Part shown: in pieces, positions 1 through 5,732 of the stretch
How positions within the stretch are numbered: the stretch's first letter is position 1
Layout of the letters: each line of letters begins with the position of its first letter
Source: Escherichia coli
Lineage (GTDB): Bacteria > Pseudomonadota > Gammaproteobacteria > Enterobacterales > Enterobacteriaceae
NCBI RefSeq assembly: GCF_030013595.1
Contig: NZ_CP122774.1
DNA length: 5,732 bases
Direction: 5' to 3' (one strand)
Position numbers and translations under genes: made by a program
The notes under the pieces: model-generated
What the model saw: the letters and a program-made list of their open reading frames with translations, nothing else
Databases searched by the model: none
What the model was told of the DNA's origin: nothing

Positions 1-495
1 ATGGCGGGCACAGTATGGCGTGACATAAGAACGGGAGAGACTGTTTTTCCTATGGGGCACCTGCACCCTCAGAGGTGCTGTGTTGATGTAAACGGTACTT
101 CTGTAGATATAGAAATTAGTTTTGGTTTTCATGTTTTTACTGATGAAAAACAAACCGGAATGCTGATGAAATTTAAGGAGGAACAGAGGTTTTTTTGTAG
201 GGAACGCTATGAGGGCAGCAAAACTATCGTTCACAGAATACTTACAGCGATAGAAAACGGTGAATACATTACAGCATTTATTTCAAAGGGGCAGGGGCAG
301 CGGTATTACCATCTTAGCCATCATGATGACTTCATTTTGATGGAAATAAGAAAGCCTCAAGATAGAAATAATTCTTTGCGTATTCATGTTGTTACAGCTT
401 ACACGCTTGATGAATGGGGGACTGTAAATAAAGGACGTAACCTGCGGTTTAGATATGTGCTGGAACAGCGACTGCAGGGAAAGAAGATTGTGTAA
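1..495 (+). CDS. Hypothetical protein, 164 aa as drawn; candidate distal gene of a two-gene accessory cassette. Start uncertain (ATG at 1, or internal ATG at 52).
   Basis: Uninterrupted ORF from position 1 to TAA at 493-495. AT-rich relative to the backbone. Followed at once by a strong hairpin terminator. An alternative start at ATG 52 is preceded by GGGAGAG (33-39). No family recognised by eye; the HLSHHDD and RIHVVTAY segments are not diagnostic. Confidence 0.5.
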   Translation: MAGTVWRDIRTGETVFPMGHLHPQRCCVDVNGTSVDIEISFGFHVFTDEKQTGMLMKFKEEQRFFCRERYEGSKTIVHRILTAIENGEYITAFISKGQGQRYYHLSHHDDFILMEIRKPQDRNNSLRIHVVTAYTLDEWGTVNKGRNLRFRYVLEQRLQGKKIV

Positions 496-531
496 AAAAC
501 AAAAAGCGCCTAAGGCGCCTTTGTTTTTTGC
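495..531. terminator. Rho-independent terminator, probably bidirectional
   Basis: GC stem GCGCC (506-510) / GGCGC (514-518) with a TAA loop, flanked by an A-run (495-505) and a T-run (519-530) that are themselves complementary, so the hairpin plus U-tract works on either strand. Confidence 0.75.
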
Positions 532-679
532 AGAATTTCGGTCTGGCCTTTCGTTATCCCGCTCACAGGCTGGGAGGGTGTGACCCCCGGCATCAGCACC
601 CCTCTCTCGAGGTTCCGGTTTGTGCTGACAACATTAGTATCCTATTCCACATGTTCGTTGTCAAACTAGCGTACTTTTT

Positions 680-770
680 GGTGTTCATTGGTGTTTATAG
701 GTTGTCATTTACCCTCTTTGTGGTTATAAGTGTTTATAGGTTTTCATTGTTTTTTATAGGTGTTCATATG
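680..770. repeat. Direct-repeat array: three copies of TTTATAGGT(T/G)NTCAT(T) plus GTTCAT half-motifs, overlapping the promoter and start of the downstream HTH gene
   Basis: tttataggttgtcatt at 694-709, tttataggttttcatt at 733-748, tttataggtgttcat at 754-768; ggtgttcatt at 680-689. Spacing between copies is 39 and 21 bp. Confidence 0.6.
702..730 (+). promoter_or_regulatory. Putative sigma70 promoter (TTGTCA, 17 bp spacer, TATAAG) for the AlpA-like gene
   Basis: -35 TTGTCA at 702-707, 17-nt spacer, -10 TATAAG at 725-730, embedded in the repeat array about 40 bp upstream of ATG 768. Confidence 0.35.
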
Positions 771-1070
771 AAGTTGCTTGATAGTAATGAAGTGTGTGAG
801 CTCTTAGGCATCAGTAAGTCCACTTTGTATCGTTGGTGCGGGGTGTCTGAGGATTTTTCTGGCTTGGGTCTAAGTAGCGGTCTTCCTCAGGCTAACGCTA
901 CTCAGAACTCTTTAGGCAGGGAAAATAGGCTCGTTAGGAGGGAATTACAGCAAAACGCTCTCGGTGTCGAAGAGACGCCAAGCGACTTCCCTCGTCCTTT
1001 CAAGATCGGTCGTTCGTTTAAATGGAAAGACGCCGAAATTATGGCTTGGCTTGAAACGCGACGCGTTTGA
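768..1070 (+). CDS. AlpA/Xis-family-like helix-turn-helix DNA-binding protein (about 100 aa) with an internal insertion
   Basis: N-terminus LLDSNEVCELLGISKSTLYRW and C-terminus FPRPFKIGRSFKWKDAEIMAWLE match the AlpA/excisionase-type HTH pattern (xLSRSTIYR ... FPKPxKLGxRxxxWxxxEIxxWL). The listed ORF begins at 528, but its first 80 codons are translation of the repeat array and the first plausible start is ATG 768. Both start and product are uncertain. Confidence 0.5.
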   Translation: MKLLDSNEVCELLGISKSTLYRWCGVSEDFSGLGLSSGLPQANATQNSLGRENRLVRRELQQNALGVEETPSDFPRPFKIGRSFKWKDAEIMAWLETRRV

Positions 1071-1083
1071 TTGATAGATCTTC

Positions 1084-2250: not shown

Positions 2251-2598
2251 ATGATACCGATGAAACGCGAGAGGATGCTCACGATACGGGTTACTGATGA
2301 TGAACATGCACGGTTACTGGAACGCTGTGAGGGTAAACAGCTGGCGGTATGGATGCGGCGGGTCTGTCTGGGTGAGCCGGTTGCCCGTTCCGGGAAGCTG
2401 CCGACACTGGCACCGCCGTTACTGCGCCAGCTGGCTGCCATCGGGAATAATCTGAATCAGACGGCGAGGAAGGTGAACAGCGGGCAGTGGTCTTCCGGTG
2501 ACCGGGTTCAGGTGGTGGCCGCACTGATGGCCATCGAGAGAGAGTTGCGCAGCTTACGGCAGGTCGTCAGGGAACATGGAGCGCGGGATGATAGTTAA
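2251..2598 (+). CDS. mbeC: Mobilisation protein MbeC (MobC-like relaxosome accessory protein). Alternative in-frame starts at 2260 and 2275 (MLTIRV).
   Basis: Translation ...MLTIRVTDDEHARLLERCEGKQLAVWMRRVCLGEP... is the MobC/MbeC N-terminal pattern; the 5' part is the same sequence retained as a remnant in pBR322. Stop TAA at 2596-2598 overlaps the mbeA start. Confidence 0.88.
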   Translation: MIPMKRERMLTIRVTDDEHARLLERCEGKQLAVWMRRVCLGEPVARSGKLPTLAPPLLRQLAAIGNNLNQTARKVNSGQWSSGDRVQVVAALMAIERELRSLRQVVREHGARDDS

Positions 2599-4330
2599 GT
2601 TTCATGCCAGGGGAAAAGGCGGTGGCAGTGGTCCGGTTGATTACCTGCTGGGAAGGGAGCGTAACCGGGAAGGGGCAACGGTGCTTCAGGGTAATCCGGA
2701 AGAAGTCCGGGAACTCATCGATGCCACGCCATTTGCGAAGAAATACACGTCAGGTGTTCTGTCGTTCGCGGAGAAGGAGCTGCCGCCTGGAGGGCGTGAA
2801 AAAGTGATGGCGAGCTTTGAGCGTGTACTGATGCCCGGTCTCGAGAAAAATCAGTACAGCATCCTGTGGGTGGAGCACCAGGACAAGGGACGGCTTGAGC
2901 TGAATTTTGTCATTCCGAACATGGAGCTACAGACCGGAAAACGCCTCCAGCCGTACTACGACCGGGCAGACAGGCCGAGAATTGATGCCTGGCAGACGCT
3001 GGTTAATCACCATTACGGGCTGCATGACCCCAACGCCCCGGAGAACCGCCGGACGCTGACCCTTCCTGATAACCTGCCGGAAACGAAACAGGCGCTTGCA
3101 GAGAGCGTCACACGCGGGATAGACGCTCTTTATCATGTCGGGGAGATAAAAGGCCGTCAGGATGTGATTCAGGCGCTCACAGAGGCAGGGCTTGAAGTGG
3201 TCAGGGTGACGCGAAGCAGTATCAGCATTGCAGACCCGAACGGTGGGAAGAATATCAGGCTGAAAGGAGCATTTTATGAGCAATCTTTTACAGACGGGCG
3301 CGGAGTTCGAGAAAAAGCTGAAAGAGAGAGCCGAATCTACAGAGACAATGCTGAACGACGAGTTCAGCAAGCTCGAAAAATCTGTAAGCAAGGCTGTGAC
3401 ATCAAACGAGACGAAAATCAAAGACGCTATAGCCCTGTTCACAGCTTCGACAGAGGAATCACTGAAAAAACACCGGGAAGGGGTGAAAGAGGCGATGATG
3501 CAGCACAGGAAGGACGTGTTAAAGCTGGCAGGGAATACGGGCATGATGTTACTGGGGATGGTCCTTTTCCTGTTTACCGTGAGTGGCGGGACGCTCTGGT
3601 ATCTTGGCGGGCGGATACAGGCGAACCTGGAAGAAATCAGGATACAGGAAGAAACATTGCAGAAACTGAACGCGAAGACATGGGGCGTGGAGTTTGTGCA
3701 GGACGGGAGAAGGAAATTTCTGGTCATCCCGCAGGGGAAATCGGCAACGGTGATTCCCTATCAGGAGAAGGACTGGGTACAACTGACGGAGTGACACAGA
3801 GTGACGGAGCTGGAAAGACATTTGCTGAACGCCTTAGAGCAACTGCAACAGGACTATATGCAGCGGCTGAGCGAATGGGAGAGCGCCTTCGTGGAATTGC
3901 AGAAAATGTTTTCGCTTACGCAACGGGACAACGCGATGCTGAACGAGCAGGTCATGCAGTTGAGTCAGCAGGTGCAGCACTTGAGCGAGCGGACAGAACG
4001 CTTGAGCCAGTTATACAGCGAGAACAGGAGATAAGGGACGAACGGCTGATACAGGAGCGCGAACATGAGTTATCCCTGGAGCGTGAGCGCCAGCTGGAAA
4101 TACAGGAACGGACACTGGATGGCATGGTAATCAGAGACAGGCTAAAATGTTGTCAGCGCGTTTCCGGTGCATTTTTTGGGATAATGGTTGGTTCGGGGGC
4201 ACCGGGAACGCGCTTCAGTCAGACCTTGCTGAAAACACAGGAACGCGTTAAAACGCATACGGGCGCGATTCTGGTGTGTCTTTTGTTGCTGTGTTTTGCC
4301 TCTATTGCCAGATCGCGCTCATTCCCCTGA
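2588..4330 (+). CDS. mbeA: Mobilisation relaxase MbeA (ColE1-type). 580 aa from ATG 2588 (the ORF track starts 4 codons earlier at 2576); 3' boundary should be verified.
   Basis: N-terminus MIVKFHARGKGGGSGPVDYLLGRE is the canonical relaxase start. The ORF overlaps the mbeC stop by 11 nt and contains mbeB and mbeD in the +1 frame, as in ColE1. The hydrophobic C-terminal tail (ILVCLLLLCFASIA) is atypical. Confidence 0.85.
   Translation: MIVKFHARGKGGGSGPVDYLLGRERNREGATVLQGNPEEVRELIDATPFAKKYTSGVLSFAEKELPPGGREKVMASFERVLMPGLEKNQYSILWVEHQDKGRLELNFVIPNMELQTGKRLQPYYDRADRPRIDAWQTLVNHHYGLHDPNAPENRRTLTLPDNLPETKQALAESVTRGIDALYHVGEIKGRQDVIQALTEAGLEVVRVTRSSISIADPNGGKNIRLKGAFYEQSFTDGRGVREKAERESRIYRDNAERRVQQARKICKQGCDIKRDENQRRYSPVHSFDRGITEKTPGRGERGDDAAQEGRVKAGREYGHDVTGDGPFPVYREWRDALVSWRADTGEPGRNQDTGRNIAETEREDMGRGVCAGREKEISGHPAGEIGNGDSLSGEGLGTTDGVTQSDGAGKTFAERLRATATGLYAAAERMGERLRGIAENVFAYATGQRDAERAGHAVESAGAALERADRTLEPVIQREQEIRDERLIQEREHELSLERERQLEIQERTLDGMVIRDRLKCCQRVSGAFFGIMVGSGAPGTRFSQTLLKTQERVKTHTGAILVCLLLLCFASIARSRSFP
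3276..3794 (+). CDS. mbeB: Mobilisation protein MbeB (172 aa), nested in the +1 frame of mbeA
   Basis: 172-codon ORF with AGGAG (3265-3269) 6 nt upstream of ATG 3276. Position and length agree with ColE1 mbeB; it has a central hydrophobic segment (MMLLGMVLFLFTVSGGTLWYL). Confidence 0.8.
   Translation: MSNLLQTGAEFEKKLKERAESTETMLNDEFSKLEKSVSKAVTSNETKIKDAIALFTASTEESLKKHREGVKEAMMQHRKDVLKLAGNTGMMLLGMVLFLFTVSGGTLWYLGGRIQANLEEIRIQEETLQKLNAKTWGVEFVQDGRRKFLVIPQGKSATVIPYQEKDWVQLTE
3801..4034 (+). CDS. mbeD: Mobilisation protein MbeD (77 aa), same frame as mbeB, GTG start 6 nt after the mbeB stop
   Basis: GTG at 3801 with GGAG 10 nt upstream. Coiled-coil-like sequence (LEQLQQDYMQRLSEWESAFVELQKMF...). 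Position corresponds to ColE1 mbeD. Confidence 0.7.
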   Translation: MTELERHLLNALEQLQQDYMQRLSEWESAFVELQKMFSLTQRDNAMLNEQVMQLSQQVQHLSERTERLSQLYSENRR

Positions 4331-4435: not shown

Positions 4436-4577
4436 TGCATAGCTATGCATGTGGTTAAAATTTACCGGGTGCGATCGCGGCAGTTTTTCGGGTGGTTTGT
4501 TGCCATTTTTACCTGTCTGCTGCCGTGATCGCACCGAACGCGTTTCTGCGGTGCGGGCAACGGATGTTATGGTAAAT
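4436..4577. other. cer/psi-like Xer site-specific recombination (multimer resolution) site: accessory region with a palindromic box plus XerC/XerD core
   Basis: Core GGTGCGGGCAA-CGGATG-TTATGGTAAAT (4550-4577). The right arm is identical to the cer/dif XerD arm TTATGGTAAAT as I recall it, and the left arm is GGTGCG..CAA like the XerC arms. A perfect 14-bp palindrome TGCATAGCTATGCA (4436-4449) lies about 100 bp upstream, where cer carries its ArgR box. Confidence 0.55.
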
Positions 4578-4693
4578 ATTGGTGCTCTGGGATGAAGCGA
4601 AAATAGGCTTTTTTTCGCTATTTTAGCCTGTTCAGGAACGGCAAGAGTAAATATCTGGGAGCATGAAGCTCGTTAACCTGAATGGAGATCCTG

Positions 4694-4858
4694 ATGATGG
4701 ACAAAGATACCACCACCCTAAAACGCACTTTGGCTCATAATCGAGCCTTTAGCGATAATATTAACCGCAGTGGCATAGCCTGGTGCTATAACACTGAGAT
4801 TGTACTCGCTGCTTGTGAGGCGATTGAAGCCGAACTACAACGGCGAGGATGTTTGTAA
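4694..4858 (+). CDS. Small hypothetical protein (54-55 aa: MMDKDTTTLKRTLAHNRAFSDNINRSGIAWCYNTEIVLAACEAIEAELQRRGCL)
   Basis: Not in the ORF track (below its length cutoff). GGAG at 4684-4687 sits 6 nt upstream of tandem ATG ATG (4694-4699). TAA at 4856-4858 is followed within 10 nt by a strong terminator. Confidence 0.4.
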   Translation: MMDKDTTTLKRTLAHNRAFSDNINRSGIAWCYNTEIVLAACEAIEAELQRRGCL

Positions 4859-4865
4859 CAATAAG

Positions 4866-4889
4866 AAAACCCGCATCAGCGGGTTTTTT
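4866..4889 (+). terminator. Rho-independent terminator
   Basis: aaaacccgc-atca-gcgggtttttt: perfect 9-bp stem, 4-nt loop and a T-run. Confidence 0.75.
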
Positions 4890-4960
4890 AGTCTCTGAGA
4901 CGCGCTACCGCTAAATTATTTTTCTCTCTATCCGCCCTGGCTTGCCCCCTACAACCCCAT

Positions 4961-5007
4961 GGAGCACAAGGAGCACAGGGAGAACCATCGAGCACAACGA
5001 GCACCGC
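4961..5007. repeat. Five tandem degenerate 9-bp repeats (G)GAGCACA-type
   Basis: ggagcacaa | ggagcacag | ggagaaccatc | gagcacaac | gagcaccgc, read directly from the sequence, immediately upstream of the AT-rich tract. Confidence 0.6.
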
Positions 5008-5009
5008 CT

Positions 5010-5190
5010 TCCTCTTATAAATCATTATTAATCATATAATTAAACAACTTCATTGTAATATATATTACTTTTTATGTTTTTAAATGTAATGTTTATTGCG
5101 ATTTAGCTTGTTTTTAACTCTATTTTTTCAGATGAGAACAAGCTGCCAGCAATGAATAACTATTTGATTTTATTGGTTTTTTCAATAAAT
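5010..5190 (+). promoter_or_regulatory. AT-rich leader or promoter tract upstream of the terminal gene (exact promoter not mapped)
   Basis: About 180 bp of strongly AT-rich sequence with several TATAAT-like and TTGA-like hexamers (for example ttataaatcattattaatcatataatt and ttgtaatatatattac), contrasting with the GC-rich backbone. Confidence 0.35.
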
Positions 5191-5219
5191 TAGTGTCCAT
5201 AGACAAACGGGAGACGACT

Positions 5220-5732
5220 ATGTCCGCAAGAGCAAGAAAAGCAGGTAAGAGAAATCAGTCAGAACGACGTCAGGATTTGATTGAAAAATTGTGGGAAGAC
5301 GACGAAATCGATACTTGGCATCGACTTGAAAATGATGGGTACTCAACAGTTCCACGTTATTTGCCTTTGATAGGCGATCTCATGGATGGTCTGTCAAAAG
5401 GATCACCATTATCAACAACCTACTTGGCTTTATGGTTCAGGGTTTCTGATGAGGGGTTGATTGAAATAAGAGATAAAGCAGCACTGGCTTTTGAATCAGG
5501 GTTCGCTAGTGAAAGAGGCGTAACTACATGGGCAGGGAGAATGAAAAAGCTAAAAGAACTGGGGTTCATATCCTGTCGTGAAGGCAGCACCGGTGAATTT
5601 CATTACGTGTTAATTGTTCACCCATTAGTTGCAGTCAAAAAGCTGCTTGATGAAGGGATTATCCCTAAAGGAAAGACTTATAACATTTTGTCGGAGCGTG
5701 TAATTGAGGTGGGAGCCTCTTGGGAGGGTTAA
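5220..5732 (+). CDS. Hypothetical winged-helix-like DNA-binding protein (170 aa from ATG 5220; the ORF track starts at GTG 5193). Candidate proximal gene of the two-gene accessory cassette.
   Basis: GGGAG (5208-5212) lies 7 nt upstream of ATG 5220. Basic N-terminus (ARARKAGKRNQSERRQ). The central segment TTYLALWFRVSDEGLIEIRDKAALAFESGFASERGVTTWAGRMKKLKELGFISCREGSTGEFHYVLI has a helix, helix-turn-helix and beta-wing pattern typical of wHTH regulators, Rep proteins or antitoxins. Stop TAA is the last three bases of the window. Confidence 0.6.
   Translation: MSARARKAGKRNQSERRQDLIEKLWEDDEIDTWHRLENDGYSTVPRYLPLIGDLMDGLSKGSPLSTTYLALWFRVSDEGLIEIRDKAALAFESGFASERGVTTWAGRMKKLKELGFISCREGSTGEFHYVLIVHPLVAVKKLLDEGIIPKGKTYNILSERVIEVGASWEG

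Follow-up and report, generated by a model that had tools for sequence, protein, structure and literature searches.

A plasmid cassette linking a YjaZ-family protein with a predicted toxin-like core to a SraL-type small RNA

What does the AT-rich open reading frame (ORF) at the start of a 5,732-bp Escherichia coli sequence (contig NZ_CP122774.1, assembly GCF_030013595.1) encode, and does its product act alone? The sequence, called the window below and meaning the whole stretch of DNA that was analysed, is an entire plasmid, small, circular, mobilisable and of the ColE1 type. The reading frame in question, ORF164 (1..495, + strand), was found by ORF calling and is annotated in RefSeq as WP_000929317.1, a protein of 164 amino acids (aa). 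A first-pass annotation, made from the letters alone, had correctly described this ATG-started frame and placed its product in no known family. Here we show how ORF164 belongs to the YjaZ family, and how it appears to form the middle of a three-part cassette, in which a predicted winged-helix protein, ORF170, is encoded directly upstream, and a convergent small RNA (sRNA) gene of the SraL/RyjA family shares its terminator. We read this cassette, with a probability of roughly 0.4, as a toxin-antitoxin-like conflict or addiction module in which ORF164 would be the RNA-targeting effector, its activity and its toxicity both being predictions.

The first-pass annotation offered two candidate starts for ORF164, ATG 1 and ATG 52. 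In an alignment of 33 family members, from which all conservation counts below are taken, the first 17 residues are conserved among homologues (W6 in 30/33), and therefore ATG 1, not ATG 52, is taken as the start. Five nucleotides upstream of ATG 1, within the last codons of ORF170, lies a Shine-Dalgarno sequence, GGGAGGG (5721..5727, + strand), read directly from the sequence and from a comparison of the start context across cassettes. The TAA of ORF170 directly abuts ATG 1 over the circular junction with zero gap, and in related circular records the last base of the upstream gene likewise adjoins the first base of ORF164. This bears out the coupling that had been suspected in case the molecule was circular, and ORF164 reads as translationally coupled to ORF170. 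Both genes are under strong purifying selection, with a nonsynonymous divergence (dN) of ~0.1, a saturated synonymous divergence (dS) and a dN/dS of 0.03-0.2.

Several searches agree in identifying ORF164 as a YjaZ-family member. The Pfam entry PF27200 (‘YjaZ’) is precomputed on all 16 ORF164 homologues in a large protein collection, hhalign aligns the 33-member family profile with E. coli K-12 YjaZ over its full length (97.5%, E 5e-12, 154 columns), and BLASTP supports membership at E 2e-08. Our local Pfam-A scan of ORF164 did not report PF27200, presumably due to an older release. The YjaZ equivalog model of NCBIfam, NF007263, gives a near-full-length but weak match of 26.6 bits (E 5.2e-06) against a cut-off of 324 bits, and identity to K-12 YjaZ is 21-24%; for these reasons ORF164 is best regarded as a family-level relative, not an orthologue, of the chromosomal protein. 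PADLOC, PHROGs and PDB sequence searches with ORF164 returned nothing useful, and its structural neighbours in AFDB are all uncharacterised or labelled YjaZ/HtrC. The family is small, with 57 clusters at 50% identity among 1.84 billion representatives, and some recent RefSeq records already carry the name ‘YjaZ family protein’, so that the label of unknown family no longer applies. The first-pass annotation had also declared that a strong match to a characterised family would count against it; what we found is a family with a name and without an established function, the htrC designation having been retracted (PMC11551758). In the literature searched, which was incomplete, we found no functional study of the YjaZ family. 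ORF164 adds a new member to this family, which is named yet uncharacterised.

Which residues does this family preserve? H20, H44, R63 and Y134 are 100% conserved, position 132 is S or T in 33/33, and R69 and S73 are each kept in 32 of the 33 members. The QRCC pair and the HLSHHDDF stretch that had earlier been singled out are indeed present in ORF164, but they are not conserved in the family. AlphaFold2, supplied with the family alignment, returned a confident model (predicted local distance difference test, pLDDT, 91.5; predicted template modelling score, pTM, 0.86). In this model a beta-rich N-terminal region of ~60 residues, which carries H20 and H44, precedes a core (~61-158) consisting of a strand, two helices, four to five strands and a helix; the first helix of the core holds R69, and its fourth strand holds S/T132-A-Y134. 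One or more N-terminal helices followed by a four- to five-stranded antiparallel sheet are what defines the RelE/ParE-BECR core fold, and the predicted structure of ORF164 has both; furthermore, the folds closest to it are those of toxins. We therefore predict that residues ~61-158 form a RelE/BECR-like core. According to Iyer et al., the BECR active site comprises an alcoholic residue in strand 4 and a His in the N-terminal helix, or an Arg in one PBECR family (PMC5512222), a pattern that the modelled arrangement of R69 and S/T132 would match. At the level of sequence, ORF164 had no Pfam match to known RelE/ParE/BECR profiles even at E<=10, PDB sequence searches with the single protein and with a profile gave no match, and no sequence profile ties the family to RelE/ParE.

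Immediately after ORF164, and convergent with it, lies the gene for a structured sRNA of the SraL/RyjA family (496..629, - strand). The Rfam model sraL (RF01408) matches here over its full length (1-142 of 142) at 84.7 bits against a gathering score of 39, with an E of 6e-18, and among 11 copies of the sRNA, 13 of the 23 consensus pairs keep pairing through two-sided changes. The best promoter-like site of the window in our promoter scan, TTGACA-17-GATACT (636..664, - strand; 10/12 matches), would place the start of transcription at ~629, where the Rfam match begins, and we infer that it is the sigma-70-like promoter of the sRNA. The earlier annotation was without this gene, which lies just outside the stretch that it described. 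ORF164 and the sRNA gene end in the same hairpin (496..531, not assigned to one strand), delimited by hairpin scan, folding and the Rfam alignment, with a GC core at 506-518 between an A-tract and a T-tract. The hairpin scan picked up a terminator-like structure at 502-522 on both strands, and folding of 490-535 gave -20.6 kcal/mol for the + strand (z -5.4 against shuffles) and -17.7 kcal/mol for the - strand (z -4.8). The same hairpin is the 3’ hairpin of the Rfam sraL alignment. It would end two transcripts, the mRNA of ORF164 (+ strand) and the sRNA (- strand), and because these two convergent genes use it, it is read as a shared bidirectional intrinsic terminator. The bidirectional part of the earlier claim of a perfect bidirectional terminator thus stands, whereas the perfect part does not: a 5-bp GC core is followed by a mismatch or bulge and then by A/U pairs.

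Is the sRNA linked to the YjaZ gene beyond this one plasmid? An sraL-type RNA adjoins a YjaZ gene in ~17 distinct cassettes. It abuts the YjaZ stop codon in loci L003, L023, L009, L031, L028, L026 and L030, and in two cassettes, L012 and L024, it lies next to the YjaZ gene on the same strand. A covariance model was built from those cassette copies and then run on independent loci. In five plasmid loci outside the training set, from Vibrio (two), Enterobacter, Pseudomonas syringae and Xanthomonas, it placed the sRNA at <=~15 nt from the YjaZ stop at 40-103 bits, while the proteins share only 28-34% identity with ORF164. Three further plasmids match the model, the loci outside the training set spanning 35-105 bits, and so does a truncated contig of a viral collection (35.5 bits). 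The same model found no such sRNA in the ORF170 loci that lack a YjaZ gene, and therefore the sRNA goes with the YjaZ gene and not with ORF170. What lies upstream of YjaZ genes elsewhere varies, from an Xre helix-turn-helix gene, an overlapping CopG ribbon-helix-helix gene, an overlapping 68-aa gene or a 73-aa gene to nothing at all. In K-12, a different sRNA gene, sroH, occupies the equivalent position, convergent with yjaZ and abutting its stop codon. The idea that sroH could be a diverged sraL was given up, as neither a model match nor a convincing alignment was obtained, which leaves an analogy of position only.

The family is found on 105 of 72,556 plasmids and on 0 of 50,697 phages, and the cassette occurs in 16 of 5,426 complete E. 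coli genomes, where it is always plasmid-borne. Its neighbours include ParE/ParD, restriction-modification, colicin, OLD/AAA and RHS/PIN genes, and it often adjoins Rep3 genes. Scans with peptide patterns added three loci in genome contigs and one in viral contigs. A metagenome scan with a loose 19-base, wide-gap pattern of the sRNA core returned at least 120 stretches, none of which matched the sRNA model or held a YjaZ or ORF170 gene; these are all chance matches and uninformative. In one Enterobacter hormaechei IncF plasmid (L157), the YjaZ-sRNA pair has, at a distance of ~2 kb and next to an IS3 element, a match to a sok-like antitoxin RNA (locus positions 5414-5557), whose 51.6 bits fall just short of the gathering score, 59.

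The upstream partner, ORF170 (5220..5732, + strand; WP_001276096.1, 170 aa), has no family match in family-database searches, and its assignment as a winged helix-turn-helix protein comes from its predicted fold. It is preceded by a Shine-Dalgarno sequence, GGGAGA (5209-5214, + strand; sequence reading). We regard ORF170 as a putative autoregulator and possibly as a protein antitoxin. The ORF170-YjaZ pair is kept on ColE1, MobA/TraG, Mob_Pre/ParA and Rep3 plasmids, and persists at 48% and 33% identity, with the stop codon of one gene overlapping the start of the next. On plasmids of Klebsiella, a homologue that is 78% identical to ORF170 is followed, 4 nt later, by a different protein of 164 aa, a PBECR2 nuclease (Pfam E 1.4e-15) without sequence relation to ORF164; homology between the two was considered and rejected, as hhalign found no relation. 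Such shuffling of DNA-binding partners with nuclease-type effectors resembles toxin-antitoxin and related conflict modules.

Three further elements lie upstream of ORF170. A palindrome, GTAATA-TA-TATTAC (5054..5067, no strand), is kept in the alignment of all ORF170 loci, the PBECR2 variant included. The Rep3-plasmid cassette L030 has GCGATA-TT-TATCGC in its place, both arms having changed symmetrically, and we infer that the palindrome is a candidate operator for a dimeric winged-helix protein. Further upstream, an array of ~9-bp GAGCAC(A) direct repeats (4957..5004, no strand) emerged from the alignment of sequences upstream of ORF170 homologues. It accompanies every homologue, again including the PBECR2 variant, and is 80-84% identical between backbones, which exceeds the conservation of the coding DNA; the window has fewer repeat copies than L003, L009 and L030. 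This array is a candidate regulator binding site or cassette boundary. Lastly, TTGATT and TAAATT, 16 nt apart (5164..5191, + strand), were picked out by reading the sequence and could tentatively be the operon promoter; the TTG is invariant across cassettes, and the site is absent from the promoter-scan output. Distant homologues of ORF170 (~45% identity) were also seen in metagenome contigs, L016-L020, without a YjaZ or PBECR2 gene. There, the homologue is convergent with, and slightly overlaps, a 144-148-aa gene of no known family beside a Rep3 replication gene, with ParE/Phd pairs in the vicinity.

How might these parts work together? In the mechanism that we favour, ORF164 would be the effector, a metal-independent RNA-targeting enzyme with a RelE/BECR-type core, in which R69 and S/T132-A-Y134 form the candidate active site and H20, H44 and R63 would be supplied by the N-terminal sheet. 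ORF170 probably autoregulates the operon, and ORF170 and the other DNA-binding partners would add transcriptional control and possibly neutralisation at the protein level. Because it is almost always present, the sRNA would be the likeliest specific partner of the protein, either as an RNA that binds and restrains ORF164 in a type III-like manner, or as its substrate or cofactor. The most economical reading is that protein and RNA interact directly, such that the sRNA restrains an RNA-cleaving effector, or that the protein processes or uses the sRNA. We favour a conflict or addiction module because the predicted fold is of the toxin type, the invariant residues look catalytic, PBECR2 can take the place of ORF164, the DNA-binding partners are shuffled and the distribution is confined strictly to plasmids.

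A number of observations pull the other way. Proteins of the ParE type share the fold and are not ribonucleases (RNases), so that the fold alone is no proof of RNase activity, and K-12 YjaZ has a Phe at the otherwise invariant H20 position. At E<=1, no family of PADLOC-DB v2, which covers known anti-phage defence systems, matches ORF164 or ORF170. ORF170 is not obligatory either: solo YjaZ genes without an upstream partner occur in L154, L155, L157, L158 and K-12, and in p12579_3 (L002, NC_017654.1), a natural plasmid of E. coli O55:H7, a Tn3 splits ORF170 near codon 31 (the equivalent of window ~5312-5320), while ORF164 and the sRNA are 100% identical to those of the window. On the side of the RNA, the most distant YjaZ subfamily (L158-L160, ~25% identity) yielded only 10-12-bit matches to the covariance model, without the hallmark motifs. 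Orphan copies of the sRNA exist, namely ryjA beside soxR in K-12 and a copy on a Shewanella plasmid. Moreover, chromosomal SraL acts on the trans targets tig and rho (PMC3753932, PMC12360218), and can thus work without a YjaZ protein. Finally, a strict search for complementary stretches of >=8 nt between each sRNA and its cassette mRNA found none conserved beyond the shared hairpin. The Shewanella copy (L163, S. xiamenensis plasmid NZ_CP143636.1; locus 1555-1685) is an orphan SraL-type sRNA of 67 bits without a YjaZ gene, and lies next to an IS110 transposase gene and a truncated, short antitoxin gene of the Xre/MbcA/ParS type.

The lack of conserved complementarity also bears on the kind of RNA control that the cassette could employ. 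In the window, the sRNA has a 9-nt match to the Shine-Dalgarno of ORF164, which is not conserved in other cassettes; a seed-pairing (type I) mechanism built on this match was dropped for that reason. When each sRNA was folded as a duplex with the mRNA of its cassette, the outcome was long-range pairings without meaning, no better than shuffles. Type I systems with an antisense RNA overlapping at the 3’ end (TxpA/RatA and BsrG/SR4) or with an enzymatic toxin (SymE/SymR and RalR/RalA) do resemble the cassette, as they too have a convergent sRNA overlapping the 3’ end of the transcript, and RalA is Hfq-dependent. However, the overlap seen here amounts to a hairpin of only ~35 nt, L012 and L024 have gene and sRNA on one and the same strand, and ORF164 is not a small membrane peptide. 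Since the overlap is only the terminator hairpin, complementarity is not conserved and the strand of the sRNA varies, an antisense mechanism of the classical kind is unlikely.

The type III systems (ToxIN, CptIN and TenpIN) come closer in layout, with a gene of endoribonuclease type beside a gene for a structured noncoding RNA, a terminator in between, and a plasmid location. In both cases, neutralisation of protein by RNA would explain the linkage independently of antisense pairing. However, type III antitoxin RNAs consist of tandem repeats, lie upstream, are co-directional and are processed by the toxin, whereas the cassette RNA consists of one unit, which lies 3’ of the gene and is usually convergent; we found no tandem repeats in 440-800. 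ToxN has a Kid/CcdB-like fold, which differs from that predicted for ORF164. Because tandem repeats are missing and the RNA lies 3’ of the gene, the cassette is not a type III system of the ToxIN kind. Compared with RelE/ParE and BECR toxins at large (RelE, HigB, YoeB, BrnT, colicin E5, CdiA-CT tRNases and PBECR domains), ORF164 adds the N-terminal beta region of ~60 residues with its two invariant His, and is tightly linked to a structured sRNA, which those toxins are not.

Two chromosomal relatives can be compared with the cassette. K-12 YjaZ (ex-HtrC) resembles ORF164 by its full-length homology, by H44, R63, R69 and the S-A-Y motif, by its membership of the same AFDB fold family, and by the convergent sRNA gene at its stop codon. 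It differs from ORF164 in being chromosomal, in having no upstream partner, in the Phe at the H20 position and in its low identity, and its neighbour sroH is not detectably related to sraL. Chromosomal SraL/RyjA binds Hfq, depends on sigma-S and regulates tig and rho in trans (PMC3753932, PMC12360218). It has conserved blocks and helices in common with the cassette sRNA, and both are convergent with, and overlap, the 3’ end of a protein gene. Chromosomal ryjA, however, stands beside soxR without a YjaZ gene, whereas the plasmid copies are cassette-borne and YjaZ-linked.

Which other explanations fit this evidence? The best placed of them, which we nonetheless consider unlikely, is that ORF164 is not toxic at all. 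It would instead bind, mature or stabilise the SraL-type sRNA, as in the pairs FinO-FinP and Rop-RNAI/RNAII; the cassette would serve to bring in an sRNA that acts in trans and retunes genes of the host, tig or rho for example, and ORF170 would simply regulate the operon. This would account for the tight linkage of protein and sRNA whatever the upstream partner or the strand of the sRNA, for a cassette mRNA without a conserved antisense target, and for the fact that RNAs of the SraL family have trans targets and bind Hfq (PMC3753932; PMC12360218). Solo YjaZ genes with the sRNA alone are common, the disruption of ORF170 by Tn3 is tolerated, and K-12 yjaZ has no obvious antitoxin protein, all of which would be expected of such a partner. 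What speaks for an effector instead is that the invariant set of H, H, R, S/T and Y is more suggestive of catalysis than of RNA binding alone, and that the closest folds are toxins. In addition, ORF170 exchanges ORF164 for a PBECR2 nuclease, and toxin-antitoxin modules typically have overlapping upstream genes of the ribbon-helix-helix, helix-turn-helix and winged-helix types, as seen here.

A plain type II pair, in which ORF170 is the antitoxin and autorepressor, ORF164 the toxin, and the sRNA an unrelated passenger that happens to share the terminator, appears less probable still. The two genes are adjacent, co-directional and coupled, the DNA-binding one coming first; a winged helix is predicted for ORF170, a conserved palindrome lies upstream of it, and both the retention of the pair on four backbones and the partner swap with PBECR2 fit this arrangement. 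However, the linkage of the sRNA, in ~17 cassettes and down to 28% protein identity, is too consistent for a passenger. Many YjaZ loci lack ORF170, and in a natural plasmid a Tn3 splits it where ORF164 is intact, which is not what an obligatory antitoxin would allow; at 170 aa, ORF170 is also large for an antitoxin. Its distant homologues, moreover, stand beside Rep3 genes without a YjaZ or PBECR2 gene.

Anti-phage defence by abortive infection, in which infection would release or activate ORF164 as an RNase, is improbable as a separate account, although it is compatible with the conflict module that we favour. Small ColE1-type plasmids carry restriction-modification systems at the same cargo position, genes of the restriction-modification, OLD/AAA and RHS/PIN types are among the neighbours, and RelE/BECR RNases are common defence effectors (PMC5512222); yet neither protein finds a match in PADLOC, and no phage-sensing domain is evident. 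Least credible is a role in replication or maintenance, with ORF170, the repeats and the AT-rich region as an accessory replicon or partition-like site and ORF164 as an accessory factor: 9-bp direct repeats followed by an AT-rich stretch do precede the winged-helix gene, and the cassette is frequently beside Rep3 genes, but every plasmid that hosts it comes with a replicon already (RNAI/RNAII in the window, Rep3 elsewhere), ORF170 contains one winged helix where Rep initiators have two, and the sRNA and the toxin-like fold would be left unexplained.

Several E. coli plasmids of 5775 bp are ~99% identical to the window from end to end, and the backbone genes include RNAI (found by Rfam), rop, mobC and mbeB/mbeD. 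Other ColE1 plasmids are homologous to the window only from ~1077-1185 through ~4577; because they share the backbone alone, 4578..5732 together with 1..1076 is read as the variable cargo. Backbone homology stops exactly at GGTGCGGGCAA-CGGATG-TTATGGTAAAT (window ~4549-4577), which we take to be a cer-like XerC/XerD site, and the cargo begins right after it. In the other ColE1 plasmids, the non-homologous region holds restriction-modification systems or ParA. ORF164 has a GC content of 0.40-0.42, compared with 0.53-0.60 for the mob/ori backbone, and a low-GC block runs from ~4800 across the circular junction to ~1200, the GC of the cargo being 0.34-0.45. The earlier impression that the ORF is more AT-rich than its ColE1 surroundings is thus correct, and its interpretation as horizontally acquired cargo agrees with the presence of the cassette on four backbones and with the loss of ColE1 homology exactly at the cargo boundaries. 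A 6239-bp contig assigned to Pseudomonas reidholzensis (L022, NZ_UNOZ01000043.1) is 96% identical to the window plasmid in DNA and has a 100% identical ORF164; it is either a cross-genus plasmid or contamination.

Some further features of the window lie outside the cassette. Within the cargo block, four copies of a ~10-bp-spaced direct repeat (TGTTTATAGGT-like; 675-767) stand directly upstream of a 100-aa ORF (768-1070), whose N-terminus matches helix-turn-helix models of the excisionase/AlpA/MAD1 type at E ~1e-6, such that the 675-1070 region would appear to hold a regulator together with a repeat array of its own. A 54-aa ORF (4694-4858) matches the phage family phrog_35409 (E 2.6e-13), is listed in related plasmids as the hypothetical protein WP_000968835.1, and is followed by a strong terminator-like hairpin (4866-4887). 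In the backbone, a relaxase-like ORF is open for 584 aa (2576-4330) and overlaps the mbeB and mbeD frames; the gene tables of related plasmid records show no MbeA coding sequence, but pseudogenes are omitted from those tables.

In the literature searched, which was incomplete, no report was found of the YjaZ-SraL linkage, of the three-part cassette or of a RelE/BECR-like reading of the protein. The cassette is a common cargo of small mobilisable plasmids in clinical Enterobacteriaceae, where it has been annotated as hypothetical proteins only and its sRNA not at all. For YjaZ, a ‘y-ome’ protein with a withdrawn htrC label, the predicted core, the invariant residues and the RNA neighbour provide a first concrete hypothesis. 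A toxin-like protein with a constant, single structured sRNA in either orientation is no clean fit to the established types of toxin-antitoxin systems, and if it is true that the RNA neutralises or guides the protein, this would be a new arrangement. A wider generalisation, which we hold as possible yet rather doubtful, is that YjaZ proteins and SraL-type sRNAs form an unrecognised and widespread gammaproteobacterial plasmid module, in which a RelE/BECR-like RNase would be checked by, or act through, an Hfq-type sRNA; chromosomal SraL/RyjA would then be a domesticated orphan of this module, and yjaZ-sroH its chromosomal counterpart. To see SraL/RyjA as one member of a mobile family of plasmid sRNAs tied to a toxin-like protein would change the view of its origin, and perhaps of its function.

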